DNA from: Alphaproteobacteria bacterium
GTDB lineage: Bacteria; Pseudomonadota; Alphaproteobacteria; Rickettsiales; 21-14-0-20-44-7
Direction of reading: 5' to 3'
NCBI GenBank assembly: GCA_043757405.1
Contig: JAYVPI010000001.1
Location: 211,437 to 275,436 of the forward strand
Length of the DNA: 64,000 nucleotides
Every line of letters begins with the position of its first letter. The first letter of the stretch is position 1. Of the stretch, positions 22,264 through 61,536 are shown one piece after another. The notes below the pieces were generated by a model. The model ran no database searches and was not told the origin of the DNA. It worked only from the letters and a program-made list of their open reading frames with translations. The position numbers and the translations under genes were made by a program.

Positions 22264-22348
22264 TGGTGCGGTTAAAAAGACTCGAACTTTCACCCCGTGA
22301 AGGACAGCGACCTCAACGCTGCGCGTCTACCAATTCCGCCATAACCGC
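22264..22348 (-). tRNA. tRNA-Leu (anticodon GAG), class II, CCA encoded
   Basis: Manual fold: acceptor GCGGTTA/TAACCGC; anticodon stem CAGCG/CGCTG with loop TTGAGGT; long variable arm; T-loop TTCGAGT. The 3' end is ACCA. Confidence 0.85.
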
Positions 22349-22395
22349 ACACTGGAAGCGGGTTTAGCAGGGGGCAGAAAAAGAATCAACTGATT

Positions 22396-22455
22396 TCGTT
22401 TATCGTTGATCGTTGATCGTAAATTGTATAACGGTAAACGATCAACGATAAACGA
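22396..22455. repeat. TCGTTGATCG-type palindromic element (copy 1)
   Basis: TCGTTTATCGTTGATCGTT and AACGATCAACGATAAACGA are perfect 19-bp arms around AAATTGTATA. The element is related to 46953-47024. Confidence 0.7.
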
Positions 22456-22459
22456 GCTC

Positions 22460-23071
22460 ATGCAAATCATAAGATCAAACGAGCTGGTAGATTATCCTTC
22501 GGCGCTTTCCTTCATGGAAAACCGGGTGGACGCGATTATTGAGGGCACGGCGGAAAACACGCTTTGGCTGCTGGAACATCCGCCACTATACACTTCAGGT
22601 ACCTCAGCCAAAATCTCGGATTTATTGCAGCCGGAATTTCCAGTTTACAAGGCCGGGCGTGGCGGGGAATATACTTATCACGGGCCAGGGCAGCGCGTGG
22701 TTTATGTTATGCGGCGGCTGGAGAAACATGACTTGCGGGCCTATGTGCGGGATTTGGAACAGTGGATAATCAATACGCTGGCGCATTTTGGGATCATGGG
22801 TGAGCGGCGTGAGGGGCGGATTGGAATTTGGGTGGCGGCGAATGGCAGCGAAGCAAAAATCGCAGCACTGGGAATCCGCGTGCGGAAATGGGTGGCTTAT
22901 CATGGGATCGCGATCAACGTGAAACCGGATTTGCGCCATTTTGGCGGAATTGTTCCCTGTGGGATTTCAGAATTTGGGGTGACATCGTTTGAGAAACTGG
23001 GAGTGAAAGTTTCGCTGAATGAAGTGGATGAAGTTTTGATTGAGGAATTCATAAAATTATTTAAAAACTAA
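22460..23071 (+). CDS. lipB: Octanoyltransferase LipB
   Basis: Contains [11 protein letters not shown] and [17 protein letters not shown]. The start is set at MQIIRSNE; the upstream part of the track ORF runs through the palindrome. Confidence 0.9.
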
Positions 23072-23072
23072 C

Positions 23073-23119
23073 GTCATCCTGAGCATAGCGAAGGATCTTT
23101 CGCTTGCGCTCAAGATGAC
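23073..23119. repeat. 48-bp-type palindromic element (GTCATYCTGAGCGCAAGCGAAGGATC... family), intergenic copy
   Basis: GTCATCCTGAGCATAGCGAAGGATCTTTCGCTTGCGCTCAAGATGAC begins 2 nt after the lipB stop. Confidence 0.8.
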
Positions 23120-23848: not shown

Positions 23849-24119
23849 GTCATTGTGGGCTTAGCCAGCGTTGTTGCATGGCTCGGAAAGTTATTGATAT
23901 TTGGTCACCAAAAACAGACGCCGTCATCCTCGCCCGCTTGGGCGGGGATCCAGGGTCGAACACTCCGTAGGTGTCTGTAGCCCTGGATCCCCGAACCTTC
24001 GGTTCGAGGATGACAGTCTTTATTCGTGCTATGGAATCTTAACCATGCAACAACGCCGCTTAAAGCCGTAATCAATCTCCATGCTTGAGTTGAGATTGCG
24101 GCTCGTAGGCCGCAATGAC
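23849..24119. repeat. Composite nested palindromic element, inverted copy of 20925-21145 (inner element 23923-24014)
   Basis: Aligns base for base, with few differences, to the reverse complement of 20925-21145. It carries an extra hairpin, ATTGCGGCTCGTAGGCCGCAAT. Confidence 0.8.
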
Positions 24120-40125: not shown

Positions 40126-40173
40126 GTCATCTTGAGCGCAAGCGAAAGATCTTTCGCTCGCGCTCAAGATGAC
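40126..40173. repeat. 48-bp palindromic element at the era/dnaE junction
   Basis: GTCATCTTGAGCGCAAGCGAAAGA|TCTTTCGCTCGCGCTCAAGATGAC has one arm mismatch. It contains the dnaE stop codon (40164-40166). Confidence 0.85.
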
Positions 40174-43100
40174 GATGGAAGGCAAATGCCCTCGATGAAC
40201 ATTATCTGCTCTTTTAAATTATCATTCACCGCATAATATCCCGGCAGTTCCAGCACCACTTCGCTAACGCCCGTTTGCGCTTTTAATATTACGCGGTTTT
40301 TGAACAACATGCCGCTTTCATATATATTCGCAGCTAATAAATTTCTCAGTTTCGCCACCGCTTCCAGGTTATCTGCAACAAAATTCAAGTCCTGGACTTT
40401 TATAAAACGCAGGAAATTTGCCTTAATTGCCGCTTGCAATTCTTCTATCCTCTCTGCCAACAAACGCACACCACCTTCATCTTTCTTCGCCTCGGCCGTA
40501 ATCAATATCGGCGTATTACTCGCCAACATTTCCGCCGCGCGGGTGATTAGGTCATCTTCGTAGAGAACAATTTCAAACACCCCCATCCCATCCGAAACTT
40601 TCGCAAACGCAAACCGCCCACGCTTGCCGGAACGAATATTCAAGGTTGCCAGCACACCAGCTAAACGAACTTTGGTCGAAGCGCTCTTCAGGCGTTCTTC
40701 GATTTGTATTGATGGCAACACGCCCATTTCATCGAGGATATGCTGATAATCATTCAATGGATGGTCTGATAAATAAAACCCAAATGCCTCATATTCCGCC
40801 TTCAGACGCTCATTGGAATCCCAATCGCTGGCCTGTACTAACGAGGGTTTTGGCGCTTCGCCAATCGTTCCTTCGCCAAATAAGCTGATTTGCGAAGAGT
40901 CAATTTCTTCCTGGCAAATATTGTTATACCGGCTGAGCATCTCCGCCGATTCCAGGATCTGCCGGCGGTTGCAAGCCATGCCGTCAAACGCCCCTGCCTT
41001 CGCCAAACCTTCCAAATGCTTCTTATTAATCACCTTAACATCGCAGCGTTTGCAAAAATCAAACACATCGGCGAACTTCCCGTTCTCCTTCCTCTGCGCC
41101 GCCATTGCTTTCGCCGCTTCGATACCAACGCCTTTTAATGCACCTAGCGCATAACGGATTGAGCCGTTTTCAGGTTGGAAATAAGCCTCTGAGGAGTTGA
41201 TATCAGGAGACAAAACTTTGATACCGCGTTTGCTGGCTTCGTGTTTATAAAAGCTGAGTTTGTCGGTGTCGGCAATATCGAGGTTCATACAGGCGGTCAA
41301 AAACTCCACCGGGTAATGGCAGCTCAAATATGCTGTCTGGTAGGCAATCACCGAATAAGCCACCGCGTGGGATTTGTTGAAACCGTAACCGGCGAATTTG
41401 GCGATCAAATCAAAAATATCCGCCGCCAGTTTTTTATTGATCCCCTTCTCCGCCGCACCTTCGGCAAACATCAGGCGTTGTTCATCCATCTCCGCCTTAA
41501 TCTTCTTGCCCATCGCCCGCCGCAGCAAATCCGCTTTGCCAAGCGAATATCCGGCCAATATTTGCGCGGATTGCATAACCTGTTCTTGATAAACCAAAAT
41601 TCCATATGTCTCATTCAACAAATCCGACAATGAAATATGCGGATATTGCACCTCTTCCTTGCCGTGTTTCCGCGCATTATAACTCGGAATATTTTCCATC
41701 GGGCCGGGGCGGCAAAGCGAAGTTAGTGCCACGATATCCTCAAATTTATCAGGGCGCATTTTGCGAATTGCGTCTTTCACCAAAGTTGTATCCAACTGGA
41801 ATACACCCGCCGTTTCACCTTTGGAAAGCATATGGAAAATCTTCTCATCATCCAGCGGTAGGTTGTGGATATCAACTTTATTCCCCCCAGCCTCAACAAA
41901 CTGCCGCGCCTTATCCACCAGCGTCAATGTACGCAAACCGAGGAAATCGAACTTCACCAACCCGGCCGTTTCCGCATCTTTCATCGAATATTGCGAAACC
42001 GGCATTTCTGAGCGCGGGTCTTTATATAACGGCACCAACTCCACCAATGGCCGGTCAGCAATCAATATTCCCGCCGCATGTGTAGAAGCATGGCGATTCA
42101 ATCCTTCGAGTTTCAGCGCCACATTCAACAATCGTCCGATATTCTCATCATCACGTTGCAACCGCCGCAGTTCAGGATCCATATCTATCGCTTTGGAAAG
42201 CGTCACCGGGTCAATTGGATTGAACGGAATCATTTTAGAAATCCTATCAACTTCCATGTAGGGAATTTGCATCACCCGCCCGACATCGCGCAGCACCGCC
42301 CGCGCTTGTAGTTTTCCGAAAGTGATAATCTGGCAGACACGGTCGTGGCCATATTTATTACGCACATAATCGATCACCTCATCGCGCCGCTCCTGGCAGA
42401 AATCGATATCAAAATCCGGCATTGATACACGTTCAGGATTCAAGAACCGTTCAAACAGCAAGCCAAACCGCAACGGGTCAACATCGGTGATTTGTAGCGC
42501 CCAGGCTACTAAGGAACCTGCACCCGAACCCCGTCCCGGCCCCACCGGAATTCCCTGGCCCTTCGCCCATTTGATGAAGTCGGATACGATTAAGAAATAG
42601 CCCGGAAATTTCATCTTGATAATGACATCAAGCTCGAATTCCAGCCTAGTCCAATATTCGTCATCCTGCGACTTGATCGCAGGATCTTGTGAGTGCATCT
42701 CAGGAGGTCCTGCGGTCAAGCCGCAGGATGACGTTTTAGTATTTAAGCGCTCCTGCAAACCCTCACGCGCCTGCACCCGTAACTCATCTTCCTGCGTCCT
42801 GCCAGCCTCAGTTGGATAATCCGGCAACATCGGCTGACGTCCTTCTGCTTTAACCGAGCAACGTTTCGCAAGCTGCACCGTATTGGCAATCGCCTCCGGA
42901 ATATCCGCAAAAATCGCTATCATTTCCTCAGCTGATTTAAAATAGAATTGGTCGTTATATTTCTTGCGGTTTTCATCAACCAAATATTTGCCCTCGGCGA
43001 TACATATCAGCGCGTCATGGGCCTCGGACATATCCTGGGTTGAATAGAAGCAATTATTAGTGGCGATCAGTGGGAGATTATATTTATAGGCTATATCTAT

Positions 43101-43625
43101 CAGGCCAGGTTCAACTTTTTCCTCTTCCTCCAATCCATGCCGCGTCAATTCAACATAGAGGCGGTTCGGGAACATACCATTCAGGCGCTCGGCGAATTGT
43201 TGGGCTTTTTGGGTTTCACCCTTGGAGATGAGTTTAGCCATTTCCCCTTCCACTCCGGCGGTTAGGCATAGCAAACCTTCGGTATATTGTTCCAACTCCA
43301 CCAGATCAAGGCTCGCTTCGTGCGGGGAGCTGGAGCGGAGTATAGATTGGCTGACTAATTTGAGGAGATTTTGGAAGCCTGTTTGATTTTGCGCATATAA
43401 AACTAATTTTGAACCCTCAACTTTGACTTCGCAGCCGATAATGGGCTGCACACCTTTATAGGCCGCCGCTTTGGAAAATTCCAGGATGCCAAAAAGATTG
43501 CCGCTATCAGTAATCGCCACAGCCGGCATATCATAATGCACCGCCATCTCCACCAGTTCCCCAATCCTAATCGCGCCCTCGGAAAGCGAAAACTGGGTGT
43601 GGTTGCGGAGATGGATGAATTGCAT
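40164..43625 (-). CDS. dnaE: DNA polymerase III subunit alpha
   Basis: The PHP N-terminus (MQFIHLRNHTQFSLSEGA) and FPGYFLIV are present. Length is 1153 aa. Confidence 0.97.
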   Translation of the reverse strand: MQFIHLRNHTQFSLSEGAIRIGELVEMAVHYDMPAVAITDSGNLFGILEFSKAAAYKGVQPIIGCEVKVEGSKLVLYAQNQTGFQNLLKLVSQSILRSSSPHEASLDLVELEQYTEGLLCLTAGVEGEMAKLISKGETQKAQQFAERLNGMFPNRLYVELTRHGLEEEEKVEPGLIDIAYKYNLPLIATNNCFYSTQDMSEAHDALICIAEGKYLVDENRKKYNDQFYFKSAEEMIAIFADIPEAIANTVQLAKRCSVKAEGRQPMLPDYPTEAGRTQEDELRVQAREGLQERLNTKTSSCGLTAGPPEMHSQDPAIKSQDDEYWTRLEFELDVIIKMKFPGYFLIVSDFIKWAKGQGIPVGPGRGSGAGSLVAWALQITDVDPLRFGLLFERFLNPERVSMPDFDIDFCQERRDEVIDYVRNKYGHDRVCQIITFGKLQARAVLRDVGRVMQIPYMEVDRISKMIPFNPIDPVTLSKAIDMDPELRRLQRDDENIGRLLNVALKLEGLNRHASTHAAGILIADRPLVELVPLYKDPRSEMPVSQYSMKDAETAGLVKFDFLGLRTLTLVDKARQFVEAGGNKVDIHNLPLDDEKIFHMLSKGETAGVFQLDTTLVKDAIRKMRPDKFEDIVALTSLCRPGPMENIPSYNARKHGKEEVQYPHISLSDLLNETYGILVYQEQVMQSAQILAGYSLGKADLLRRAMGKKIKAEMDEQRLMFAEGAAEKGINKKLAADIFDLIAKFAGYGFNKSHAVAYSVIAYQTAYLSCHYPVEFLTACMNLDIADTDKLSFYKHEASKRGIKVLSPDINSSEAYFQPENGSIRYALGALKGVGIEAAKAMAAQRKENGKFADVFDFCKRCDVKVINKKHLEGLAKAGAFDGMACNRRQILESAEMLSRYNNICQEEIDSSQISLFGEGTIGEAPKPSLVQASDWDSNERLKAEYEAFGFYLSDHPLNDYQHILDEMGVLPSIQIEERLKSASTKVRLAGVLATLNIRSGKRGRFAFAKVSDGMGVFEIVLYEDDLITRAAEMLASNTPILITAEAKKDEGGVRLLAERIEELQAAIKANFLRFIKVQDLNFVADNLEAVAKLRNLLAANIYESGMLFKNRVILKAQTGVSEVVLELPGYYAVNDNLKEQIMFIEGICLPSSS
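42660..42732. repeat. GTCATCC...GGATGAC element inserted in frame in dnaE
   Basis: GTCATCCTGCGACTTGATCGCAGGATC...CCTGCGGTCAAGCCGCAGGATGAC encodes SSCGLTAGPPEMHSQDPAIKSQDD. Confidence 0.85.
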
Positions 43626-43706
43626 GGTTCATTTATAAACCATGCAGTTGCCAAATATCAAATGCCAAATGTTAGTTCTGTTATTTGATATCTGACATTT
43701 GGCATC

Positions 43707-44378
43707 CTATTCAACCTTCCCGCCATGGATCTTCAACACACGATCCATCTTATCGACCAGCGCCTGGTTATGCGTGGCGATCAACGCGCAGCAGTTGGTT
43801 TTTTTAATCATCTGGCGCAGCAAATCGAAGACTATACCGGAATTGTGCTCGTCCAGGTTTCCGGTTGGTTCATCGGCCAAAATCACCGCTGGACTATTCG
43901 CCAATGCCCGTGCAATTGCCACACGCTGCTGCTGCCCGCCGGAGAGTTGGGATGGGCGGTGAGTTTTACGGTCGGACAGGCCCATTACTTCCAAAAGTTC
44001 TTCTGCTTTTTTGAGGGCGGCGGTTTTGGCAACGCCATTTATGATTTGTGGGATGCACAGGTTTTCCAGGGCTGTAAACTCCGGGAGTAAATGATGGAAT
44101 TGATAAACGAAGCCAATATTCTTACGGCGGGCGGCGGTGCGCCTTTTATCATTCGCAGTGGCGAAATCTTCATCGCTGATTTTGATAATACCGGATTGGG
44201 GTTTGTCTAATAGTCCTGCGATTTGCAGCAATGTGGTTTTGCCGGAACCGCTTGGCCCCACGAGCGCAACAACTTCGCCAGGATTGAGGCTGATATTTAT
44301 GCCGTTAAGGACTTTGATTTCCTCGCCGCCCTGGATGAAATGCTTATGCACATTTTGCATTTCAAGTAACTTACTCAT
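43707..44378 (-). CDS. lolD: Lipoprotein-releasing system ATP-binding protein LolD
   Basis: GPSGSGKTT, LSGGQQQRVAIARA and a LolD-type motif region are present. ATG 44378 is preceded by AAGGATGGAG. Confidence 0.85.
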   Translation of the reverse strand: MSKLLEMQNVHKHFIQGGEEIKVLNGINISLNPGEVVALVGPSGSGKTTLLQIAGLLDKPQSGIIKISDEDFATANDKRRTAARRKNIGFVYQFHHLLPEFTALENLCIPQIINGVAKTAALKKAEELLEVMGLSDRKTHRPSQLSGGQQQRVAIARALANSPAVILADEPTGNLDEHNSGIVFDLLRQMIKKTNCCALIATHNQALVDKMDRVLKIHGGKVE

Positions 44379-44396
44379 AACTCCATCCTTCAACAG

Positions 44397-44476
44397 CCGT
44401 CACCCCGCACTTGTTGCGGGGTCTATTCACAAGTTCATGCCCTGTAATGGATGCCGCAACAAGTGCGGGGTGACGG
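44397..44476. repeat. GTCACCCCG...CGGGGTGAC palindromic element between lolC/E and lolD
   Basis: Perfect 23-bp inverted arms CCGTCACCCCGCACTTGTTGCGG / CCGCAACAAGTGCGGGGTGACGG flank 34 bp. Confidence 0.9.
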
Positions 44477-44485
44477 TTTTGGTGG

Positions 44486-45736
44486 CTATTCATAACGCAA
44501 CGCCTCCGCCGGATCTAGTTTGGCGGCGCGCCAGCTTGGATAGATCGTGGCGATCAGGGAAATTAATAGCGAAATTCCCGCTACTTCGAGAACTTCTTTT
44601 GGGTTCACCAGCGCTGGAAGATGATCGAGGTGATAGATCTCCGGGTTAAAAACTTGTGTTTTGGTGACATATTCAACTGCTTTTTGTATGGGGCCGATGT
44701 AGTGGCAGAATAATAAGCCAAGTAAAACTCCGCTAAGCGTTCCGACGACGCCATTAAAACTGCCAACTAGCATAAATGCGCGTTGCACGGCGCGGCGCTC
44801 CATTCCCATTGTGCGGAGGATGGCGATTGATTGGGACTTGTCTTTTACAAGCATAATCATGCCGCTGATGATGTTGAATGAGGCCACCAAAATTATCATG
44901 CTGAGGATTATGAACATCATATTGCGCTCGGTTTGCACGGCGCCAAAGAATTGGGAGTTGGCTTGCTGCCAGTCATAGACGCGGTACCTGTCGCCGTAGC
45001 GATCGTGCAGTTTATAAGCATATGGCAGCGCATCGTCTAAATTTTTGACTTCAATGCCAAGGCTTTCAACCTTACCGCCAAAATCAAAGAGCCCTTGCGC
45101 AGTTTCAAGCGGGATATAAACCATATTGCGATCATATTCCTGCATACCAAGATTAAAGATGCCGACGATTTTGAAAGTTTTCTTGCGCGGGATGGCGCCA
45201 AAGACGGTTGAGGTGGATTGAGGAGTGAGGATGGTAATTTCGTTGCCGATATATGCATCCAACGCACTGGCCAGTTTGAATCCGATGATGATGCCATCTT
45301 CGCCAAAATCTTTCCATTCGCCAACAAAATCCATATTATTGACGAGCTTATTCGCCTGTAATTTTTCCGACGGAACCCCGCGTACTTTGACGCCTTCAAC
45401 CGCACCTTTGGCATGCGGGTTGAAAATCACCGCATTGCCCTCGATAGTTGGCGTCACGGATTTAACTTCCGGATCTTTCTCAATTTCCTTTTGAAGCAAC
45501 TGCCAATCCGGCAATCCGCGCTCCAGTGAATAAACCGAAACATGCGAATTTACGCCAAGGATGCGGCCCAGCAAGTCATTACGAAAGCCGTTCATAACTG
45601 AGAGGACGATGATAAGCGTCGCCACGCCGAGGCTTATGCCGACAATCGAAAGTCCCGCCACAATCGATATCATTCCCTCCCGCTTTTTTGTGCGTAGATA
45701 GCGGGCGGCGAGTGTTAGTTCCAGTTTATTGAACAT
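44486..45736 (-). CDS. Lipoprotein-releasing system transmembrane protein, LolC/LolE family
   Basis: N-terminus [21 protein letters not shown], with MacB-like periplasmic and FtsX domains. Length is 416 aa. Confidence 0.85.
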
Positions 45737-46949
45737 TTATTACCTTATTTAAAGCCGCCTCAACCGAAACTTCCTGCTTCTCACTAGATTTGCGATTCTT
45801 CAACTCAACCATTCCATTGGCCGCGCTTCTTGGCCCCACAGCAATTTGCCACGGTAGCCCGATCAAATCCATCGTTGCAAATTTCGCACCCGCTGAACCA
45901 TCGCGGTCATCGTATAAGCAGCTTGCGACTTTGCCATAGATTTCACTGCAGATTTTATCGCAGGCAGCATCACCAGGTTTGATGTTGATTAGCCCGAGTT
46001 TATATGGCGCGACCGGTTCCGGCCAGATGATGCCATTTTCGTCGTGGCTGGCTTCGATAATCGCCCCCACCAGTCGCGAAACGCCGATGCCGTAACTGCC
46101 CATTTGCGGGATAATTTCCTTACCGTCCGGCCCTTGGACTTTGACTTTCATGGCACGCGAATATTTATCGCCGAAATAGAATATGTGGCCAACTTCAATC
46201 CCCCGCGCTTCCTTGAAACCTTGTGGCGCGGTTTTGGGATCGTGCATTTCATCGGCCATGGCATATGAAAAATCATCGGTGTAATAAAGCGCCGACTCTC
46301 CGGTCTGCGCGACGATATGGAATTCGTGGCTCAAATCTCCGCCGATTGGCCCTGTATTGGCGCGAACAGGCACGGCTTTCAATCCCATGCGGGAGAAGGC
46401 TTTTAAATATGCGCCGTGATATTTCCAATATGTTTCCTGCGCCGCTTTTTCGTCGATATCAAAGCTATAAGCATCCTTCATCAAAAATTCGCGGCCGCGC
46501 ATGACGCCGAACCGTGGGCGGACTTCGTCGCGGAATTTCCATTGGATGTTATAAAGCATTTTTGGCAGGTCTTTATATGACTTGCAGGATTGGCGGAAAA
46601 TATCGGTGACAACTTCCTCCGCTGTCGGGCCAAAGAGCAGATCGCGGTCAGAGCGGTCTTTTATACGCAGCATTTCCTTGCCATAAGCTTCATATCGCCC
46701 AGATTCCTGCCATAATTCAGCCGGTTGCATAGTCGGCATCAATAGTTCCAGCGAGCCGATCGCGTCCATTTCCTCCCGAACGATTTGTTCGATATTTTTG
46801 AGGACTTTCAAGCCCAAAGGCAGCCAATTATAGATCCCCGCCCCCACTTGGCGCACCATTCCGGCACGCAGCATCAGGCGATGTGAGGCAATTTGCGCCT
46901 CAGCCGGATTTTCTTTGATTATCGGAAGGAGATATTGGCTTAGTTTCAT
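45726..46949 (-). CDS. proS: Proline--tRNA ligase (short form without editing domain)
   Basis: N-terminus [34 protein letters not shown]. Class II motifs are present. Confidence 0.9.
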
Positions 46950-46952
46950 AAG

Positions 46953-47024
46953 TCGTTCGTTGTTAATCGTTGATCGTTCATCGCTTGTAATTCGATAAAC
47001 GATTAACGATGAACGATCAACGAA
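46953..47024. repeat. TCGTTGATCG-type palindromic element (copy 2)
   Basis: TCGTTGATCGTTCATCG...CGATGAACGATCAACGA with a TTGTAA centre, between the proS and rpmG starts. Confidence 0.65.
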
Positions 47025-47089
47025 AAAGCTTGACTTTGCTGTGGGCGATGGCTAAAAACCCTGACAAATCAAAGAATCGGATAAGAAAA

Positions 47090-47257
47090 ATGGCTAAAAA
47101 AGACGCAATGTTAATCAAGCTGGTCAGCACCGCTGGCACAGGCTTTTATTATGTAAAAAAACGCAATCCGAAGCGTTATCCTAACAAACTGGCTTTCACT
47201 AAATATGACCCAGTAGTTCGTAAGCATGTTGAGTTTAAGGAAGAAAAGCTGAAATAG
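47090..47257 (+). CDS. rpmG: 50S ribosomal protein L33
   Basis: The 55-aa product is [29 protein letters not shown]...[18 protein letters not shown]. Confidence 0.9.
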
Positions 47258-47263
47258 GCTTCA

Positions 47264-47655
47264 GTCTTTCAGACATCGGACTTCAGTGAAAAAGGGCCAC
47301 AGGGAATTAAAAGTTTGGCAAAAATCTGTGGAGTTGGTTGATAATGTATACAACCTCATAGAGAAATTTCCTAAACATGAAATTTATTCTTTATCTACCC
47401 AATTAAAAAGATCCGCGGTCTCCGTTCCCTCAAACATAGCAGAGGGCTCAGCTAGAAAATCTGACAAAGAATTCATACGTTTTTTGAATATTGCATACGG
47501 CTCATTGGTGGAAGCGGATACGCAAATTTACATAGCCGAAAAAAGAAAATATATCTCCTCTGAAGAAGCAATTTCTATTATCAATGATCTTAACGAAGTA
47601 GGCAGAATGATAAATGGCCTAAGAAACTACTTACTGAAGTCCGATGTCTGAAGAC
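47264..47655. mobile_element. IVS-like hairpin cassette: 22/23-nt inverted repeats enclosing a four-helix-bundle ORF
   Basis: The left arm is GTCTTTCAGACATCGGACTTCAG (47264-47286). The right arm is CTGAAGTCCGATGTCTGAAGAC (47634-47655). They are complementary apart from one extra T. Confidence 0.5.
47286..47651 (+). CDS. Four-helix-bundle protein ('23S rRNA intervening sequence protein' / Avd-like family)
   Basis: Family hallmarks LKVWQKS...FPKHEIYSLSTQLKRSAVSVPSNIAEGSAR...FLNIAYGSLVE are present. The GTG start lies at the last base of the left stem and the stop lies inside the right stem. Confidence 0.8.
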   Translation: MKKGHRELKVWQKSVELVDNVYNLIEKFPKHEIYSLSTQLKRSAVSVPSNIAEGSARKSDKEFIRFLNIAYGSLVEADTQIYIAEKRKYISSEEAISIINDLNEVGRMINGLRNYLLKSDV

Positions 47656-47661
47656 CGCAGT

Positions 47662-48546
47662 CTATTTTTTTGCAAAATAATAATGTTCCCCGCGTTCCGA
47701 TTTAAGGATTTTGAGCCTGCGCTCGGTTTCAATGTTTTGCTGTAACTCGTGATATAGCTTAGTTTCCTGTAACGTGAAGCCAGCCCTTTCGACTATCTTT
47801 TTAATCTCGGAAACCGGTGCGGCGAATTTGTATTTTTCTTTTTTCTTGGCCAATACCATATCCGCAGTTTTTGTTCGCGCATTGCCTTCCATCTCGGACA
47901 TCGAGCCGAAAACTATATAACTTCCCTTAGCGCTTAACGAGGAAATATCGGAGAAAAGTTTTTCCACATCTTTCCTTTCCAAATATGGCAAAACACCCTC
48001 AATCACAAAAAAGCTTTTTTGCTTTTTATCAAATTTAGTTGGCCGCAACGCTTCTTTTAGGTTCTTTTTAGAAAGGTCGGCAGCAACAAAATTCATATTA
48101 GAAGTTGTAATTCCCGGCATCCTGGCCAAAGCATCAAGCTTAATTCTTTGTGTCGCTTGCTGATCCAGTTCAAAAAATTCCATTTGCGGATGTAAGTGTG
48201 AATATTCCAGGCAAAGTGTATCAAATCCAGCACCGATCATTGTTACTTGCGTGACTTCCCCAGCCACAGCTTGCAATTGCTTACGGATATAATTTTTGCG
48301 GGCAGCATAATGTACCGGCGAGCCTTTTATGCCGAAATTATCGATGAGCCAGATAGCGGCGCCGTTCCCAATCAAGTTATGCAAAAGCTTTATGCTCAAA
48401 TCGTTTTTTGCACATTCATTGGCCATTAAACGGCTTATTTCAACCTGCTGTTTAGTCACAAGATCAAAATATTTTTTACTCGCAGCGAGTGCTGGCAGAA
48501 CTTTGGGGATCAGGAAAGCGGTAAAACTCGGCTTCTCCTTTGCCAT
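47662..48546 (-). CDS. Class I SAM-dependent methyltransferase (leucine carboxyl/O-methyltransferase-like family)
   Basis: Contains VTMIGAGFDT and FFVIEGVLPYL. Confidence 0.65.
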   Translation of the reverse strand: MAKEKPSFTAFLIPKVLPALAASKKYFDLVTKQQVEISRLMANECAKNDLSIKLLHNLIGNGAAIWLIDNFGIKGSPVHYAARKNYIRKQLQAVAGEVTQVTMIGAGFDTLCLEYSHLHPQMEFFELDQQATQRIKLDALARMPGITTSNMNFVAADLSKKNLKEALRPTKFDKKQKSFFVIEGVLPYLERKDVEKLFSDISSLSAKGSYIVFGSMSEMEGNARTKTADMVLAKKKEKYKFAAPVSEIKKIVERAGFTLQETKLYHELQQNIETERRLKILKSERGEHYYFAKK

Positions 48547-48548
48547 TT

Positions 48549-49598
48549 CTAGACCGCAGCCAATGCCGGTTTGGCTTTCAGGTTATAATCTTTAACCAAG
48601 GCCTCCGCAATCTGCACAGCATTTAACGCCGCGCCTTTACGCAGATTATCGCCAACCACCCATAAATTGATTCCGTTTTTGATAGTAAAGTCTCTACGGA
48701 TACGGGAAACGAAAACATCGTCTTCGCCAACCACCTCAACTGGGGTTGCGTAACCACCATCTTCCTGCTTATCAAAAACTCTCACGCCCGGGGCATCTTC
48801 CAAAATTTCACGCACCTGCTCAGGAGTGATTGGGTTTTCAAATTCGATATTGATCGATTCCGAGTGTCCAACAAAAACCGGCACGCGCACACAAGTGGCG
48901 CTCACAGCGATATTCGCACCCAATATTTTCTTTGTCTCATTCACCATTTTCAACTCTTCCTTGGTATAACCATCATCCGCGAATGAATCGATATGCGGGA
49001 TAACATTGAAGGAAATGCGTTTAGTAAATTTTTGCGGCGCGACTTTATCGTTCATATAAACGGCTTTCGTTTGCGAAAACAACTCATCCATCGCCTCTTT
49101 ACCGGCGCCGGAAACTGATTGGTAAGTTGAAACTACGATACGTTTGATTTTGGCAGCATCATGCAACGGTTTCAAAGCCGTGACCATTTGGATAGTCGAG
49201 CAGTTTGGGTTGGCGATGATATATTTTTTTGTATATTCGGAAATCGCCGCTGCATTAACTTCCGGCACCACCAATGGAACTTCCGGATCCATGCGGAATT
49301 GTGAAGTGTTATCAATAACAATACATTTTGCCGCCGCCGCTTTTGGCGCGTAAATCGCAGAAACTTTGCTGCCTGGTGAAAACAAGGCGATATCAGTGCC
49401 GTGGAAGTCATGTTTTTCCAAATTTTGGACTTTAACAATTTTGTGATCGCCGAAGCTAACTTCAAGGCCGGCAGAACGAGCGGATGCAAGCGCAACTAAC
49501 TCACGAACCGGGAATTTGCGCTCCGATAAAATTTTTAATATTTCACGGCCAACATTGCCCGTGGCGCCGACGACGGCGACTTTGTAACCTGAGGACAT
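48549..49598 (-). CDS. asd: Aspartate-semialdehyde dehydrogenase
   Basis: VAVVGATGNVGRE and the active-site NCST context are present. Length is 349 aa. Confidence 0.95.
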   Translation of the reverse strand: MSSGYKVAVVGATGNVGREILKILSERKFPVRELVALASARSAGLEVSFGDHKIVKVQNLEKHDFHGTDIALFSPGSKVSAIYAPKAAAAKCIVIDNTSQFRMDPEVPLVVPEVNAAAISEYTKKYIIANPNCSTIQMVTALKPLHDAAKIKRIVVSTYQSVSGAGKEAMDELFSQTKAVYMNDKVAPQKFTKRISFNVIPHIDSFADDGYTKEELKMVNETKKILGANIAVSATCVRVPVFVGHSESINIEFENPITPEQVREILEDAPGVRVFDKQEDGGYATPVEVVGEDDVFVSRIRRDFTIKNGINLWVVGDNLRKGAALNAVQIAEALVKDYNLKAKPALAAV

Positions 49599-49654
49599 AA
49601 CTAACCTTAGAATTTGATAATGGCCGATAATACAGATTTTATTGACTTATTCCA

Positions 49655-50377
49655 CTATTTTTTATCGCAAACCGCCTCAAAAAATATCGCCCGCGTGGTA
49701 TTGGCGAGGTTTTTCTTCTGATACTTAGTTTCAATATGGTCAATAGGTTGTGTTTGCCAATCTGCCCTGGAACCTGCCAACCAACGAAATTTATCGTGTT
49801 CCAGCAATTCTCTGGCGATCCATTTAGCATAATCTTCGTGATCCGTGGCAATTCTGAGCCTGGCATCCCGCTTCATAATTCGTGCAAGCAAGTCTAAAGT
49901 TTGCTTCGATATTATCCGGCGTTTATTCTGCCGTTTCTTTGGCCACGGATCGGGGAACAGTATAAATACACGATCAATAACTCCCTCCCACACGTCATCC
50001 TGCGGCTCGACCGCAGGATCTCCTATGGTCAAGCCATATGGTGACGTAATTAATTGACGAAAATCTCCGGCATAGACTCGGATATTCTTAAGCTCATTCT
50101 CTTCAATCCCACGCAATAATTTTACAGTTCCGTTTACAAACGGCTCGCAGCCAATAAAGCCAATTTTGGGATTTGCCAGCGCCTGATGCAATAAATGACC
50201 ACCATCACCAAAGCCGATCTCCAGCCAGATTTCTTTGAAATCAAACTTAGGAAAGCCGTCAACTTTCACTTTGGGCAAAACTTCCGCCAACAGCTTTTTG
50301 GAATTATCACGCAGCTTGCGCGACTTGGTACGACCAAAGCTTTGCAGGTATTTAGGCGACTGCTTTGCGTAATTCAT
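49655..50377 (-). CDS. trmB: tRNA (guanine46-N7)-methyltransferase TrmB
   Basis: Contains [14 protein letters not shown]. The start is set at ATG 50377 and overlaps the metK 3' end by 26 nt. The track's 50443 start is less likely. Confidence 0.85.
49994..50045. repeat. GTCATCC...GGTGAC element inserted in frame in trmB
   Basis: GTCATCCTGCGGCTCGACCGCAGGATCTCCTATGGTCAAGCCATATGGTGAC encodes [17 protein letters not shown]. Confidence 0.8.
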
Positions 50378-51548
50378 CCGCCAAATCCGTTTTCTCCCAC
50401 GAGAAGCCGCCGTCTTTTTCCGGTTTGCGGCCAAAGTGGCCATAAGCGCTGGTGCGGCGGTAGATTGGTTTGTTAAGCTCTAATCTGGTGCGGATTCCAC
50501 GTGGAGATAAATCCACAATCTCAAGAATTTTCTGCGCCAGTTTTTGCTCGTCTACTTTTCCAGAACCATGTGTATTCACATAAAGCGCCAATGGTTTTGA
50601 AACGCCGATTGCATAGGCAACCTGCATTGTACAGCGATCGGCAAGACCTGCGGCAACCACGTTTTTAGCAACATAACGCATTGCATATGCCGCTGAACGA
50701 TCAACTTTAGTTGGGTCTTTGCCGCTGAATGCGCCGCCGCCATGTGGGGCAGACCCGCCGTAAGTATCGACGATAATTTTACGGCCGGTCAAACCAGAAT
50801 CACCTTCCGGGCCACCGATTACGAAATTGCCGGTTGGGTTGACATAAAATTCTTCTTCACTCGGCATCCAGCCTTTTGGTAAAATACGTTCGACAACCGG
50901 ACGGATGATATCGCGTACATCTTTGGTTTTTAAACCCGCATCATGCTGGTGCGAAACTACAACTGAAGTTGCTTTGACGGCACGGCCATTGCCTTCGTCG
51001 TTGTTTTGATAAAGCAATGTAACCTGTGATTTCGCGTCCGGGCCGAGGCCTTTGATTTTGCCGGATTTGCGCAGGTCAGTCAGTTCTTTCAAAATTTTGT
51101 GCGAATAATAAATTGGAGCCGGCATTAAATCTTCAGTTTCATTACAAGCATAGCCGAACATGATACCTTGATCGCCAGCGCCTTCATCTTTAGTGTCATT
51201 AGAATTTACACCCATTGCGATATCTGGGGATTGGCTGATCATATAGTTATGGATATTCACTTTTTGCCAGTGGAAGCGCTCTTGTTCATAACCCACATCT
51301 TTCACCACACCGCGTGCGATTGCGCAGATTTCGTCCTTGGTCAGGGCTTGTTTGGCCGTTGCTTCGCCGCCGATGATGATATTATCAGGCGTAACCATGC
51401 ACTCCGCGGCAACGCGGGCATATGGGTCTTTGCTTAAATAAGCATCAACAATCGCGTCAGAAATTTGATCGCAAAGCTTGTCCGGATGGCCCTCCGCCAC
51501 TGATTCGCTGGTAAATAAAAATTCGCCGGGATGATTTTTCATGTTCAT
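50352..51548 (-). CDS. metK: S-adenosylmethionine synthase
   Basis: Contains [11 protein letters not shown] and GGGAFSGKD. Length is 398 aa. Confidence 0.97.
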
Positions 51549-51575
51549 TTGGATACCTTGAATATCTGTTATATC

Positions 51576-51659
51576 GTCACCCCGGACTCGTTCCGGGGTC
51601 TGGCATTAGACACAATCTCTTGCCTCAACTTCCGGATCGCGGAACCAGTCCGCGATGAC
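51576..51659. repeat. GTCACCCCGG...CGCGATGAC two-hairpin element in the metK leader
   Basis: The hairpins are CCCCGGACTCGTTCCGGGG and ATCGCGGAACCAGTCCGCGAT. The architecture is that of the superfamily. Confidence 0.7.
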
Positions 51660-51693
51660 GATTATTAATGATGAAGTGGGTTTAACAGAGCTC

Positions 51694-52089
51694 TTACTTA
51701 TCCGCAAGCGACTTAATTAACTCTAACGCCTTCTTGCGAACTTTTGGGTCAGTAATTTGGTAATAAGCTTTGACCAGAGCCATAGTTTCGCGATTTTTGA
51801 GGTTGTCCTCATGCTCAAATGCCGCAGTATCTTCCGCCAGGGCATATTTATTTGCACCAGCTGCACCGCTATCATATTCATCAAAAAAGAAATTAACCGG
51901 GACGCTTAACGATTTTGCAATGTCAAACAACCGGCTTGAGCCGATACGGTTCACACCTTTTTCATATTTTTGCACTTGCTGGAAGGTAATACCAAGCATG
52001 TCCGCCAATTTTTCTTGGCTGATGCCGGTAACTGTGCGGCGGAGGCGGAGGCGTTTGCCTACGTGAATATCGATCGGGTTAGCACTCAT
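51694..52089 (-). CDS. XRE-family helix-turn-helix transcriptional regulator
   Basis: Contains GKRLRLRRTVTGISQEKLADMLGITFQQVQKYEKGVNRI. The lnt-HTH-metK-trmB order is a common alphaproteobacterial arrangement (recalled from memory). Confidence 0.75.
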   Translation of the reverse strand: MSANPIDIHVGKRLRLRRTVTGISQEKLADMLGITFQQVQKYEKGVNRIGSSRLFDIAKSLSVPVNFFFDEYDSGAAGANKYALAEDTAAFEHEDNLKNRETMALVKAYYQITDPKVRKKALELIKSLADK

Positions 52090-52126
52090 TATAAAAATCT
52101 ATAATTAAAAGTAGTAATTGATAGAT

Positions 52127-52140
52127 TAGGAACATTCCTA
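52127..52140. promoter_or_regulatory. Inverted repeat TAGGAA-CA-TTCCTA upstream of the XRE regulator (candidate operator)
   Basis: Perfect 6-bp arms lie 38-51 nt upstream of ATG 52089, flanked by AGATTAG / CTAATCT. Support is weak. Confidence 0.3.
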
Positions 52141-52194
52141 TTATCTGTTATCTAATCTTAATAAGCGAAAATTCCGCGCCCTGCAAGAGAAGTT

Positions 52195-53760
52195 TTAAAC
52201 TTTTCTTCTAAAAATTAATAAAAACTCCACACTGATTATGATTAATCCAAATATTATCCAATCACCGTATAATGAATATATAGTTACCGAATTATTTAAT
52301 TCAAGATCGGCGGATAAAAATCCATGCTGATTATAAGCCAATGATTTTACAATCCGCCCATTCTTATCAATAATCGCCGAAACTCCTGTATTAGCCGCCC
52401 GCAACATTGGCACCCCTTGCTCAATTGAACGCATTTGCGACATCGCCAGATGTTGATACGGCCCCGTCGAATTTCCAAACCACCCATCATTAGTAACATT
52501 AACCAGCAAATCCGGCTTGACTGCCGAATGGGAAAATTCCGGAAATGTGACTTCATAACAAATCAACGGCAAAAACCCCGGCCCGTTTTTATATTTCATC
52601 ACCTCACGCTTGCCCCCTTGCGAAAAATCCAGCGCTCCAGGCGTAATTTTTTCCAGCGGCAAATAATTCCGGAACGGCACAAACTCCCCAAACGGCACAA
52701 GGTGAATTTTGTCATAAGACTGATAAATCCCATCTTTGCTGATAGCATAAAGCGTGTTCCAAACCTGGTAATTACTTTTGCTTTCCCCGCTAGAGCGCAA
52801 CCCGCCAGTAACCAACACCCCATTATCCGGCGCCACACGCCTCAACAAATCCGTCACTGGCTGCTGCCGGTTCAAATAATAAGGCGCTCCCGATTCCGGC
52901 CACAAAACTATATCCGCGTTTTTATAATCCAGCGTCTGCATGAAATCTATATTCTCAATAAACTGCTTCTTCGCCGCCAACGGCTCCCACTTCAACGATT
53001 GCTCAACATTGGGTTGGAAGATTATGACTTTGGCAGTTTTATCTAAATCACCCTCACCTTTGCCAAAACATAACAGGCCATACAGAATTATAATCCCTAC
53101 AAGAGCAACAACCCCAACAAGTGATTTCTTATTTTTATAATAAAGCGGCAATAGCGAAATAATTATCACTACATAGCTCAACAAATAAACTCCGCCCGCT
53201 GAAGCAAGCTGTGAAAAAATAGTTGAAACTAGTGCCGTATATCCAATCAAATTCCATGGAAACCCCGTGAACAACCATGTGCGGATTAATTCAAAAACCA
53301 CCCATAATATAGAGAAAAGGATAATATCATTCCAATTCCCGCATTTGTCATCCTCGGGCTTGACCCGAGGGTCCAGCGATGAGTATGCCGCATGGCTGGA
53401 TCCCAGCCTTCGCTGGGATGACCTAAATGCGAGAGCAAACAACCCAATATAAATCGCCAGACCAAATGGAATCCCGCATACCGCAAACGGAATCAGCCAC
53501 GCAAATTTTTCTGCATCAACAAGTAGTGAGTTAGCAATCCAATATAAGCCAAACACAAAATACCCAAAGCCGAATGCCCAGCCGATTTTGAATGCCTGTA
53601 TCTTATTTTCCGCCGCAGCAAGAATTTTAAAAAATATTGGGAATGAGATAAATAAAACCGGAAAGATATAAAACGGCGCCAATGCCAAATCCGCCAATCC
53701 GCCAGCGGCAATTAGCGTTAAATACTTCAGCTTTCCTTGCAAAAAAAATTTTATCCCCAT
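52195..53760 (-). CDS. lnt: Apolipoprotein N-acyltransferase
   Basis: An N-terminal polytopic region and a CN-hydrolase domain with the LICYEVTFPE catalytic Cys context are present. Confidence 0.9.
   Translation of the reverse strand: MGIKFFLQGKLKYLTLIAAGGLADLALAPFYIFPVLFISFPIFFKILAAAENKIQAFKIGWAFGFGYFVFGLYWIANSLLVDAEKFAWLIPFAVCGIPFGLAIYIGLFALAFRSSQRRLGSSHAAYSSLDPRVKPEDDKCGNWNDIILFSILWVVFELIRTWLFTGFPWNLIGYTALVSTIFSQLASAGGVYLLSYVVIIISLLPLYYKNKKSLVGVVALVGIIILYGLLCFGKGEGDLDKTAKVIIFQPNVEQSLKWEPLAAKKQFIENIDFMQTLDYKNADIVLWPESGAPYYLNRQQPVTDLLRRVAPDNGVLVTGGLRSSGESKSNYQVWNTLYAISKDGIYQSYDKIHLVPFGEFVPFRNYLPLEKITPGALDFSQGGKREVMKYKNGPGFLPLICYEVTFPEFSHSAVKPDLLVNVTNDGWFGNSTGPYQHLAMSQMRSIEQGVPMLRAANTGVSAIIDKNGRIVKSLAYNQHGFLSADLELNNSVTIYSLYGDWIIFGLIIISVEFLLIFRRKV
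53347..53422. repeat. GTCATCC...GGGATGAC element inserted in frame in lnt
   Basis: GTCATCCTCGGGCTTGACCCGAGG...GATCCCAGCCTTCGCTGGGATGAC encodes GSSHAAYSSLDPRVKPEDD. Confidence 0.8.
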
Positions 53761-53763
53761 AAC

Positions 53764-53834
53764 GTCATCCTGCGGCTTGACCGCAGGAACTCCTCATACA
53801 CGCACCAGACCCTGCAATCAAGTAGCAGGGTGAC
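53764..53834. repeat. GTCATCC...GGGTGAC element at the lnt start / bioF end
   Basis: GTCATCCTGCGGCTTGACCGCAGG...CCCTGCAATCAAGTAGCAGGGTGAC. It contains the bioF stop (53818-53820) and lies 3 nt upstream of the lnt ATG. Confidence 0.8.
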
Positions 53835-54951
53835 ACATATTTAGTGTTTTAAGCCAATCCGCCAATAAATCAATTTCACTTTTCGTATGCGCCGCCGTCA
53901 CCGAAATGCGGAGCCGCGCCGTCCCCTTAGGCACCGTTGGCGGCCGCATCGCCGAGACTAGTATTTTATTATCCTTAAGCAACTTCTCCGCCGCTAGCGC
54001 CTTTTCCTCGCTGCCCAAAATAATAGGAACGATACTTGAAGTTCCGTCATTACGAGCGAAGCGCGGCAATGACGATTTAAGATATTCCGTATTCTTCAAT
54101 ACTTTCAAATATAGCTCATCCCGCCCAGCAATCTCCAGCGCCTTTATCGCCGCACCAACCGCGAATGGCGGCAGCCCAGTTGAATAAATCAATGATCGCG
54201 CCTTAGTCTCCAAATACCGAATCAAAGCCCGAGAACCACAAACATACCCCCCATAACTCCCCAGCGCCTTTGACATTGTCCCGATATAAATGTGAGCTTT
54301 AAGTTTTGATTTTTGATAAATGGAGTGTGCGCCGTCAACTATTAGTGTGCAGTTGTTTTTATCGGCGATTTCCTTCAGCTCATCAACCGGAGCAAAATCC
54401 CCATCCATTGAAAAGATCTCTTCGGTGATGATGAGCCGCCTGCGCTTATCGTCATTCTGAGCGCAAGCGAAGGATCCTTCGCTTGCGCTCAGAATGACGT
54501 CTTTCTCCAAACACTTCTTCAAGTCAGCAACATCATTATGCTTAAACCGCACCAGCTTTGCGCCGGAGAGCTTTATTGCGTCGATTATAGAAGCGTGGAC
54601 TAATTTATCGGCATAAACCACTTCCGGCTCCAGCGCTGTGATAACGCCAAGATTTGCCAGATATCCGCTGCCAAATACCGTGGCGGCCTCATAACCTTTA
54701 TAAGCCGCGATTTTTTCAGCAAATTCCCCAAATAATGGATGATTTCCGCCCGCAATCCTGCTTGCCCCCGCTCCTGCGCCATATTTTTCCGCAGCTTCTA
54801 TTCCGGCAATAATCACTTCCGGATGGCGGCTTAAACCTAAATAATCATTTGATGTAAAATTGATAAATCCTTCCCCCCACTCACCCTTGGGCGTTCGCAG
54901 GAGATTTTTATCCTTCAAATCATTTAGTTTTTGCTGTAATAGACTATCCAT
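53818..54951 (-). CDS. bioF: 8-amino-7-oxononanoate synthase
   Basis: SNDYLGL and the PLP-Lys context [12 protein letters not shown] are present. The start is set at ATG 54951 (MDSLLQQKL...); the track's 55011 start is TTG. Confidence 0.85.
54451..54498. repeat. Perfect 48-bp palindrome inserted in frame in bioF
   Basis: GTCATTCTGAGCGCAAGCGAAGGA|TCCTTCGCTTGCGCTCAGAATGAC has 24+24 arms with no mismatch. It encodes [16 protein letters not shown]. Confidence 0.9.
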
Positions 54952-55900
54952 GAACATCCGACACGATTGGAAACAGTCTGAAGTTATAGATTTATTCGCC
55001 CTGCCTTTCAACGACCTAATATTTCAGGCCGCCAGCGTGCACCGCGCCAATCATGATCCAAACGCGGTTCAAATCTCGACATTACTCTCCATAAAAACCG
55101 GCGGCTGCGCGGAAGATTGTAAATATTGCCCGCAATCCGCATCATATGACACCCCCGTAAAAGCCGAAAAACTCACCACAGTTGAACATGTCCGCTCCGA
55201 GGCCACAAAAGCCAAAGCCGCCGGAGCTTCCCGCTTTTGCATGGGCGCCGCCTGGCGTTCGCCTAAGGATCGGGATTTGGATAATGTTATTGAGATGGTG
55301 AAGGTGGTGAAGGATCTGGGGTTGGAGTCGTGCTGCACATTGGGCATGTTGACGAAACCACAAGCCGAGAAATTGAAGGATGCGGGGCTGGATTATTACA
55401 ACCACAACATCGATACTTCCCCGGAATATTACGGAAATATAATCACCACCCGCACCTTCCAAGACCGCCTCGATACACTCGCGCATGTGCGCGAGGCCGG
55501 AATGAAAACCTGCTGCGGCGGCATAGTAGGAATGGGCGAATCAGTGGCCGACCGCGCCGGTATGCTGCTGACATTGGCGAATTTGCCTGAACACCCGGAA
55601 TCCGTCCCGATTAATCTGCTAGTCCCAGTCGAAGGCACCCCATTCGGCAATCGGCAATCGGCAATCGGCAATCTCGACTTCGTCCGCATGATCGCCGTGG
55701 CGCGGATATTAATGCCAAAATCCGCAATACGCCTGTCAGCAGGCCGCGAAGAAATGTCAGACGAAATGCAGGCGTTATGTTTCCTAGCGGGTGCAAATTC
55801 GATTTTTTATGGCGAAAAATTATTAACCACTCCGAATCCGGAAGCCCTTGAAGATAAGAAGCTTTTTGACCGACTGGGTCTTAAAGCTATGGCAGTTTAA
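54950..55900 (+). CDS. bioB: Biotin synthase
   Basis: The radical-SAM motif [11 protein letters not shown] is present. The start is the first ATG, at 54950 ([16 protein letters not shown]). Confidence 0.95.
55645..55673 (+). repeat. Heptanucleotide tandem repeat (CGGCAAT)x4 +1 inside bioB
   Basis: The run is perfect: cggcaat cggcaat cggcaat cggcaat c. It encodes GNRQSAIGN. Confidence 0.95.
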
Positions 55901-55934
55901 TTGACCATTAATCCCTTTCCCCTAATATCCCCCC

Positions 55935-59082
<3,148 letters not shown>

Positions 59083-61442: not shown

Positions 61443-61536
61443 GTCACCCCGTCCCCAGCCTTCGCTGGGGCAAGCCTTTGTGACGGGGTCAAGCGGTTCT
61501 TGTAAACGCCAGACCCCGCAACAAGTGCGGGGTGAC
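61443..61536. repeat. Mosaic GTCACCCC...GGGGTGAC element
   Basis: The right arm CCGCAACAAGTGCGGGGTGACGG (61516-61538) is identical to 44454-44476. The internal CCCAGCCTTCGCTGGG is identical to the module in lnt (53402-53417). Confidence 0.8.

Follow-up and report, generated by a model that had tools for sequence, protein, structure and literature searches.

How a conserved and essential membrane enzyme comes to carry a set of DNA hairpins within its codons is the question raised by lnt, the gene for apolipoprotein N-acyltransferase, in a 64,000-nt stretch (hereafter the window) of an alphaproteobacterial genome (GenBank assembly GCA_043757405.1; contig JAYVPI010000001.1, positions 211,437–275,436). 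A 76-bp palindromic element, GTCATCCTCGGGCTTGACCCGAGGGTCCAGCGATGAGTATGCCGCATGGCTGGATCCCAGCCTTCGCTGGGATGAC, lies inside this gene at window positions 53347–53422; it ends in GTCATCC...GGATGAC and holds three hairpins. Two CGTC-tagged repetitive extragenic palindromes (REPs), also named Ssn-related motifs (SRMs), make up the element as an inverted dimer, and it is very probably a tolerated passenger insertion of this known, non-autonomous repeat family rather than a designed loop. It is a new example of a published phenomenon; the repeat family, its nuclease partner and even a case in lnt are already known.

The insertion in lnt and its place in the protein

The open reading frame (ORF) of lnt contains the Pfam domains LNT_N and CN_hydrolase and scores 302 bits against TIGR00546 (cut-off 133). 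Within it, the element is translated as ..FRSSQRRLGSSHAAYSSLDPRVKPEDDKCGNW.., with LGSSHAAYSSLDPR and VKPEDDK among the peptides encoded in the lnt frame. The in-frame unit is 78 bp (i.e. the 76 bp plus one tag base per side), 76 not being a multiple of three. The original prediction, made from the letters of the window, had the 76-bp element read in frame in lnt, and it is; the KCGNW residues quoted there, however, lie outside the 76 bp.

Alignment with orthologues identified the element as an insertion between hydrophobic helices of the membrane domain, as had been proposed. The closest Lnt relatives (59–69% identity, 492–499 residues) are 22–29 residues shorter, with a gap of ∼20–25 residues exactly at the element, and the same pattern was found in more distant alphaproteobacterial Lnt proteins. 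The Lnt structure of Pseudomonas aeruginosa has an 18+2-residue gap at this place and that of Escherichia coli has smaller gaps there. An identical loop in unrelated Lnt proteins would have spoken against an insertion; neither the loop sequence nor any module-typical peptide was found among the 119 further Lnt homologues that were retrieved. An element of the lnt kind was also missing from the syntenic loci of two relatives, which share the gene order bioA-bioB-bioF-lnt-HTH-metK (HTH, helix-turn-helix gene). A Logan contig from sequencing run SRR23617274 is 99.99% identical to window positions 44392–53420 and includes 74 of the 76 bp, starting two bases inside the element, while its far end lies at another repeat. 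More than one assembly thus shows the insertion, though assemblies break at these repeats. That this short-read contig is bounded by repeats at both ends indicates that the repeats fragment assemblies, and intragenic copies may be under-reported in metagenome-assembled genomes (MAGs).

Lnt has eight membrane helices with cytoplasmic N- and C-termini, a conserved periplasmic linker between helices H5 and H6, and Arg123 at the cytoplasmic end of H5 (Wiktor et al. 2017). The residues directly after the insert, NWND, align with T120-W121-L122-R123 of E. coli Lnt, which places the insert, by homology to the E. coli and P. aeruginosa structures, in the cytoplasmic H4–H5 loop and gives a predicted answer to the earlier question of which side of the membrane the loop faces. 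An AlphaFold model (predicted template-modelling score 0.87) agrees with a loop at this place: residues ∼119–142 form a coil (predicted local distance difference test ∼50) flanked by confident helices at residues 73–118 and 143–163. The insert adds ∼26 residues of hydrophilic character, five of them Arg/Lys and four Asp/Glu, without forming a new hydrophobic segment. E289, K351 and C401, which were taken from their motif contexts to be the E-K-C catalytic triad, are among 71 columns invariant across all 16 aligned sequences. The ORF, the position of the loop and the invariant residues are compatible with a functional enzyme, as judged from the sequence.

Family membership of the element

CGTC-tagged REPs were described by Di Nocera et al. 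(2013; PMC3733652). They occur mostly in Alphaproteobacteria and mostly as inverted dimers, and consist of an unpaired CGTC tag (TGTC and CCTC being allowed), a stem of 8–9 bp beginning with A-T, a loop of 4–5 nt and a CCA tail. Spacers of the dimers are sometimes structured, and intragenic units encode 20–30 residues that were argued to be neutral and located in loops. In the same source, Neisseria dRS3 is equated with family CGTC-1, and the Rickettsia palindromic elements (RPEs) RPE-6 and RPE-4 of Rickettsia conorii with CGTC-1 and CGTC-4, respectively. An oriented form of dRS3 that is longer (NTS), together with related motifs, the SRMs, flanks genes for a small GIY-YIG protein, Ssn, which binds single-stranded DNA of the hairpin and cleaves a few bases upstream; 71% of Ssn genes lie near one SRM or more (Chenal et al. 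2025; PMC11893778).

Beyond what the original prediction had claimed, the lnt element belongs to this described family (CGTC-tagged REPs including RPE-4, RPE-6, dRS3/NTS and the SRMs). Its terminal inverted repeat is 7 nt and perfect, and its two modules (A and B; Table 1) both have the stem, loop and tail that Di Nocera et al. describe. Module A (9-bp stem, 5-nt loop) has the format of CGTC families 3/4 and resembles RPE-4; module B (8-bp stem, 4-nt loop) has the format of CGTC-1 and resembles RPE-6, dRS3 and NTS. The block CCTCGGG/CCCGAGG of module A equals that of NTSvar (ACTCGGG/CCCGAGT) except for the outer C-G pair, and the same stem was also present in one locus from another genome (L104). 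With the published SRM search pattern, HGTCWYN(0-2)YYVSBRHN(0-5)WNVSBRGN(0-2)RNCYNB (Chenal et al. 2025), there were 12 matches in the window versus 0.26 in shuffles and 0 and 1 in the two syntenic loci; module A matches at 53346–53376. Compensatory double changes were found at all nine stem pairs among 30 variants from the window and other genomes. Stem cells were paired in 97% of cases versus ∼37–43% with the partner slid, in a set that was chosen for pairing, so that only the double changes carry weight.

The hairpins of the lnt element had been predicted to differ from the CCTGCGG/CCGCAGG type of dnaE and bioA, and they do: one carries two compensated base pairs and the other end belongs to a different module family. 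Hairpin CCTCGGGCTTGACCCGAGG (CCTCGGG-CTTGA-CCCGAGG, 53352–53370) had no second match in the window with up to three mismatches allowed. The sharing of one hairpin with a copy at 61.4 kb was likewise confirmed, CCCAGCCTTCGCTGGG (CCCAGC-CTTC-GCTGGG, 53402–53417) recurring exactly at 61454–61469 (0 matches in 100 window shuffles). The inner repeat of the spacer, GGATCCAG...CTGGATCC, is also found in many dimers from other genomes. Folding of the whole element gave −55.9 kcal/mol for RNA of the coding strand (z = −5.4 versus shuffled controls) and −29 kcal/mol for DNA (z = −5.9). An Rfam scan of the window returned one tRNA only and no family for the lnt element, and a literature sequence search returned no literal match to four module sequence strings.

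A close likeness is to RPE-4 and RPE-6 of Rickettsia (Ogata et al. 2000), which are also small hairpin repeats that lie within housekeeping genes, in frame, without a counterpart in the orthologues. The lnt element likewise lies in frame in a conserved gene, is absent from orthologues and sits in a loop region compatible with the fold (AlphaFold coil and structure alignment). Besides the module formats, the encoded peptides are related. In the lnt frame module B gives SSQRRLGS, and its other frame would give VIPAKAGI, the peptide listed for intragenic CGTC-1 (RPE-6) units of R. conorii in a supplementary table of PMC3733652; DTVVKPRYD/DTVVKPRCD is near DPRVKPEDD here. The gene dnaE is a target in both organisms, that of R. 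conorii bearing a CGTC REP that reads DTVVKPRCD, and a single CGTC-1 REP is catalogued in lnt of Sphingopyxis alaskensis (Sala_3138, residues 152–160) (both PMC3733652). Expression of RPE-1-decorated Rickettsia proteins has been reported in the literature. The present case differs from the RPEs in that the host is an uncultured, non-Rickettsia alphaproteobacterium (nearest named MetK proteins 68–70% identical, from Dongia and Sneathiella), that modules of two different CGTC families are combined in the lnt dimer, whose spacer adds a third hairpin, and that in-frame copies are dense, with six in ∼17 kb.

With the CGTC-tagged REP superfamily the element shares the tag (in module A), stems, loops, CCA tail, inverted dimers, structured spacer and intragenic units; hybrid inter-family dimers are not mentioned in the parts of its description consulted, yet were common in the loci fetched here. 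With NTS and SRMs it shares the search pattern (module A), and GIY-YIG genes flanked by inverted modules were recovered here too. Unlike the Neisseria system, the window holds no ssn gene; the Neisseria motifs are extragenic (∼2% intragenic) and were studied for transformation, not for protein inserts. REPINs with their RAYT genes (Bertels and Rainey 2011) are similar as inverted hairpin-repeat dimers that fold into a long hairpin, with a single-copy associated gene flanked by repeats and a suspected recognition of single-stranded hairpins; they differ in being essentially extragenic and in having a Y1 (HUH) transposase in place of a GIY-YIG nuclease. Identity with REPIN/RAYT was rejected, the tag here being [C/T/G]GTC rather than GTAG and the gene associated in other genomes being GIY-YIG. 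A classical miniature inverted-repeat transposable element, derived from a DDE insertion sequence, was also rejected: the terminal repeat is 7 nt rather than 15–30 bp, the ends carry different hairpins, no direct duplication was found at 14 window copies, and the related coding unit bears GIY-YIG rather than a transposase.

In other genomes the modules stand beside GIY-YIG genes. The commonest module of the window, GTCATCCTGCGRCTYGAYCGCAGG, was found at more than 115 loci among the matches listed from a scan of species-representative genomes, and these listed matches include Alpha- and Gammaproteobacteria, Omnitrophota, Chloroflexota, Thermodesulfobacteriota, Muiribacteriota and others. A gene of ∼100 residues with a GIY-YIG domain adjoins modules in all four loci that encode a GIY-YIG relative. 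In three of the four it lies between two inverted modules; in the fourth, the module is just downstream and the contig ends before the gene. In two of the four, from gammaproteobacterial MAGs (L050:3029–3388 and L079:1590–1950), the GIY-YIG ORF enters the right module (..GSCGQAAG) and stops at the TGA of GGATGAC. When 80 metagenomic loci were chosen by GIY-YIG protein similarity alone, 68 had enough flank, and a correctly oriented module was found upstream in 50, downstream in 58 and on both sides in 46 of these 68 (wrong-orientation controls, 9 and 18). The upstream module lay most often 37–40 bp before the GIY-YIG start codon, and unit lengths peaked at 355–360 bp. This arrangement agrees with the published association of Ssn and SRMs; the idea that the module-flanked GIY-YIG gene is a new mobile element was dropped, as it is the published Ssn/SRM system. 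As a separate observation, in a Marinicella MAG (L116:300–1130) an Ssn-like gene is followed by tandem units of ∼365 bp, all with one and the same terminal module and the same flanks (ctcaaaacacac).

Sister copies, reading frame and flanks

The same repeat family has invaded neighbouring genes in the same way. At least 15 elements are present in the window, mostly as inverted dimers; 10 pairs of the form GTCAYYY...RRRTGAC have perfect 7-nt ends (more under looser criteria), and modules consisting of GTC plus a hairpin numbered 22 versus 3.6 in shuffles. Orthologue gaps verified six in-frame insertions in five genes (dnaE, trmB, lnt, bioF twice, and bioA) within ∼17 kb (Table 1). If the insertion load of window positions 40126–57062 were typical of the genome, it would exceed the intragenic CGTC REPs reported for R. 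conorii. A second element type, a near-perfect palindrome of 47–48 bp (GTCATYCTGAGCGCAAGCGAAGGATC|CTTCGC...GAC), occurs at 54451–54498, 40126–40173 and 23073–23119. The distribution is strongly uneven, with no CGTC/SRM repeat in the first 20 kb of the window and at least 15 at 20–62 kb; a module-scan match at 4177 and an SRM-pattern match at 10177 look like chance.

Table 1. Window coordinates of lnt, the parts of its inserted element, and related insertions and copies.
Feature	Position	Strand	Description
lnt (apolipoprotein N-acyltransferase)	52195–53760	−	Host gene, intact 521-aa ORF
Element core	53347–53422	−	Inverted dimer of two CGTC-tagged REP/SRM modules with structured spacer; in-frame read SSQRRLGSSHAAYSSLDPRVKPEDD
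Module A	53346–53376	+	Tag TGTC; lnt-strand peptide DPRVKPEDD
Module A stem	53350–53358 with 53364–53372		9 bp, ATCCTCGGG; one T-G pair
Module A loop	53359–53363		CTTGA
Module A tail	53373–53375		CCA
Spacer	53372–53400	.	Own hairpin TCCAGC...GCTGGA, overlapping the CCA tails of modules A and B; from RNA and DNA folds
Module B	53397–53423	−	Tag GGTC; 8-bp stem ATCCCAGC/GCTGGGAT; loop GAAG; tail CCA
Left flank	53340–53346	.	CGCATTT; complementary to right flank; part of target or outer layer of element
Right flank	53425–53431	.	AAATGCG; starts two positions beyond element
era copy	40126–40173		In, or directly upstream of, the era start
dnaE insertion	42660–42732	−	Without counterpart in orthologue
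lolE/lolD copy	44399–44474		At gene junction
trmB insertion	49994–50045	−	16-residue gap in orthologue
bioF insertion 2	54045–54074	−	30 bp, CGTCATT...AATGACG
bioF insertion 1	54451–54498	−	48-bp perfect palindrome, without counterpart in orthologues
bioA insertion	56999–57062	+	Without counterpart in orthologues
Related composite element	61443–61536	.	94 bp, contains hairpin CCCAGCCTTCGCTGGG

The frame in which the lnt copy is read is equivalent to that of the other intragenic dimers, as the original prediction had proposed: DPRVKPEDD in lnt, DPAVKPQDD in bioA, DPAIKSQDD in dnaE and DPAVEPQDD in trmB. In the forward direction the canonical module is open as VILRLDRRI and SSCGLTAG, with the third frame closed (GCT TGA); in reverse it is open as DPAVKPQDD and ILRSSRRM, with the third frame closed (..GGA TGA C). 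Measured from GTC to GAC, the four intragenic dimers are 52, 64, 73 and 76 long, all equal to 1 modulo 3 (54, 66, 75 and 78 with the tag bases), and for the canonical module at such a length the one combination without a stop at either end is SSCG.../...DPxVKPxDD. That DPxVKPxDD is shared is what purifying selection leaves, i.e. a survivor effect, because the remaining frames are closed by the TGA of GGATGAC and by another TGA inside the canonical module (GCT TGA). On its coding strand the lnt copy has a second open frame as well, and the choice there was one of two. For seven of the eight extragenic elements (all but the copy at 23073), tag-to-tag lengths were spread over 0, 1 and 2 modulo 3 without preference. 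Units of R. conorii also use other open frames (VIPWLDHGI and WILRSSRGMT; PMC3733652). A rule that tag-to-tag lengths are multiples of three was rejected as a definition of element boundaries; it fits the four intragenic dimers and the 30-bp bioF unit and fails for the 48-bp bioF palindrome.

The lnt copy is flanked by complementary heptamers. With the 78 bp at 53347–53424 deleted, the sequence would close up in frame (..LAFKCGNW..) to a perfect 14-bp palindrome, CGCATTTAAATGCG, and an element-free allele would join ..CGCATT to TAAATGCG... No other copy among the 14 examined in the window has pairing flanks, and no target-site duplication was visible at any of the 14. Across all DNA fetched, 7 of 272 tag-outward dimers had pairing flanks of at least 7 nt, five of them being lineage-specific longer elements; the two dimers with unique pairing flanks (the lnt copy and one other) compare with ∼0.15 expected by chance according to our estimate. 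That other dimer, from an Azospirillum MAG (L008:2305–2409), has unique, perfectly complementary 10-nt flanks, tagaagaatc and gattcttcta. These statistics are a weak lead on target choice. It is conceivable, if improbable, that REP dimers associated with Ssn insert in the middle of palindromes already present, i.e. in the loop of a hairpin extruded on single-stranded DNA. Such integration, if true, would explain why these repeats pile up in terminators and inside one another.

Several other repeats were observed in the window. Arms of 174 nt at 20957–21130 and 23868–24041, 90% complementary and each with a 92-bp repeat dimer, bracket a 2.7-kb segment with a tRNA gene (22267–22348); they may represent either an inverted duplication or a composite mobile unit. 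Another palindromic repeat, unrelated and AT-rich, is made of CGTTGATCG units and is self-complementary at both of its sites, 22391–22460 and 46944–47027. Hairpins of CCTCCTCCCTCAGGGAGGAGG at 27353–27378 and 57680–57736, two in tandem after bioA, are probably terminators or another small repeat family.

Origin of the insertion and its significance

In the passenger explanation, a copy of the dimer, i.e. of two inverted CGTC-tagged REPs with tags outward, CCA tails inward and a hairpin spacer between them, landed in the codons of the cytoplasmic H4–H5 loop of Lnt. The insertion would have survived because its 78-bp length preserves the frame, because a reading frame without a stop codon is used, and because its ∼26 hydrophilic, disordered residues are predicted to lie in the cytoplasm, far from the periplasmic active site. 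Following the cited work, an Ssn-type GIY-YIG nuclease whose gene lies elsewhere in the genome may recognise the hairpins of these repeats in single-stranded form; the NTS-ssn-NTS unit resembles a minimal insertion sequence, and the dimers would derive from it by loss of the gene. To the mobilisation step itself, a spread through Ssn acting on single-stranded DNA hairpins, we give roughly even chances.

Several points weigh against a passenger origin or its details. Module B fails the SRM pattern at its first base only (G, where A, C or T is expected), and its GGTC tag is outside the CGTC, TGTC and CCTC listed in PMC3733652, where the TGTC of module A is an allowed variant. No Ssn gene was found in the 64-kb window by tblastn or by profile search (best E = 0.82), and the published activity of Ssn is to cut single-stranded DNA beside the motif rather than to mobilise the repeats (Chenal et al. 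2025; PMC11893778). The orthologous loop is too diverged (nearest orthologue 69% identical in protein) to yield an empty site at nucleotide level, so that the boundaries given here are putative. The CGCATTT/AAATGCG flanks are not accounted for by a passenger insertion, and the activity of the modified Lnt is presumed.

Other explanations were considered for the same observations, and none gains support. The element could act as nucleic acid, either as an Ssn site that modulates recombination or transformation or as an mRNA hairpin that pauses ribosomes after H4, its coding position being incidental or selected. The very stable mRNA fold, the concentration of copies at 40–57 kb of the window and the finding that NTS/SRM sites flanking a gene alter transformation rates via SsnA in Neisseria (Chenal et al. 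2025; PMC11893778) all point this way. Relatives with the same gene order, however, are without such sites, the same repeats are found in unrelated genes and spacers, and Neisseria NTS copies are rarely intragenic (∼2%; PMC11893778). We regard such a role as unlikely; it is also compatible with a passenger insertion rather than exclusive of it.

Co-option of the loop, i.e. that the 26 residues give Lnt a new cytoplasmic function or interaction and are kept by protein selection, would suit the intact ORF, the charged and exposed loop and the still near-perfect hairpins. The stems, however, are preserved at the DNA level, which indicates youth or a DNA-level constraint rather than constraint on the peptide, and the same peptide frames recur in bioA, dnaE and trmB. 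Together with the absence of the loop from the other homologues and the published argument that such inserts are neutral in loops (Di Nocera et al. 2013; PMC3733652), this makes co-option very unlikely. Scarcely credible is an assembly chimera at a repeat, or an lnt pseudogene that remains open by chance. Independent assembly contigs do break at these repeats, but the Logan contig joins 74 of the 76 bp to the downstream part of lnt at 99.99% identity. Artefact or decay is also opposed by the 521 open codons, by the retention of all 71 invariant columns including E289, K351 and C401, by the TIGR00546 score of 302 bits, and by five further insertions in four neighbouring genes, all in frame. A passenger insertion thus remains the preferred explanation.

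The insertion extends the list of genes tolerant of in-frame hairpin repeats to one for a polytopic membrane enzyme and marks the H4–H5 cytoplasmic loop of Lnt as permissive. A genome with many in-frame copies would be a good place to look for the recent insertions and empty sites that are needed to learn how these repeats move, and integration at palindrome centres, if true, would give a first clue to how members of a very widespread family insert and choose their targets. The element also links three literatures, those on Rickettsia RPEs, on CGTC-tagged REPs and on the Ssn nuclease and its motifs. Chenal et al. (PMC11893778) name neither RPEs nor CGTC-tagged REPs, and Rickettsia is among their SRM-rich genera. 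The link suggests that peptide “decorations” of the Rickettsia type may be by-products of an Ssn-associated repeat system.

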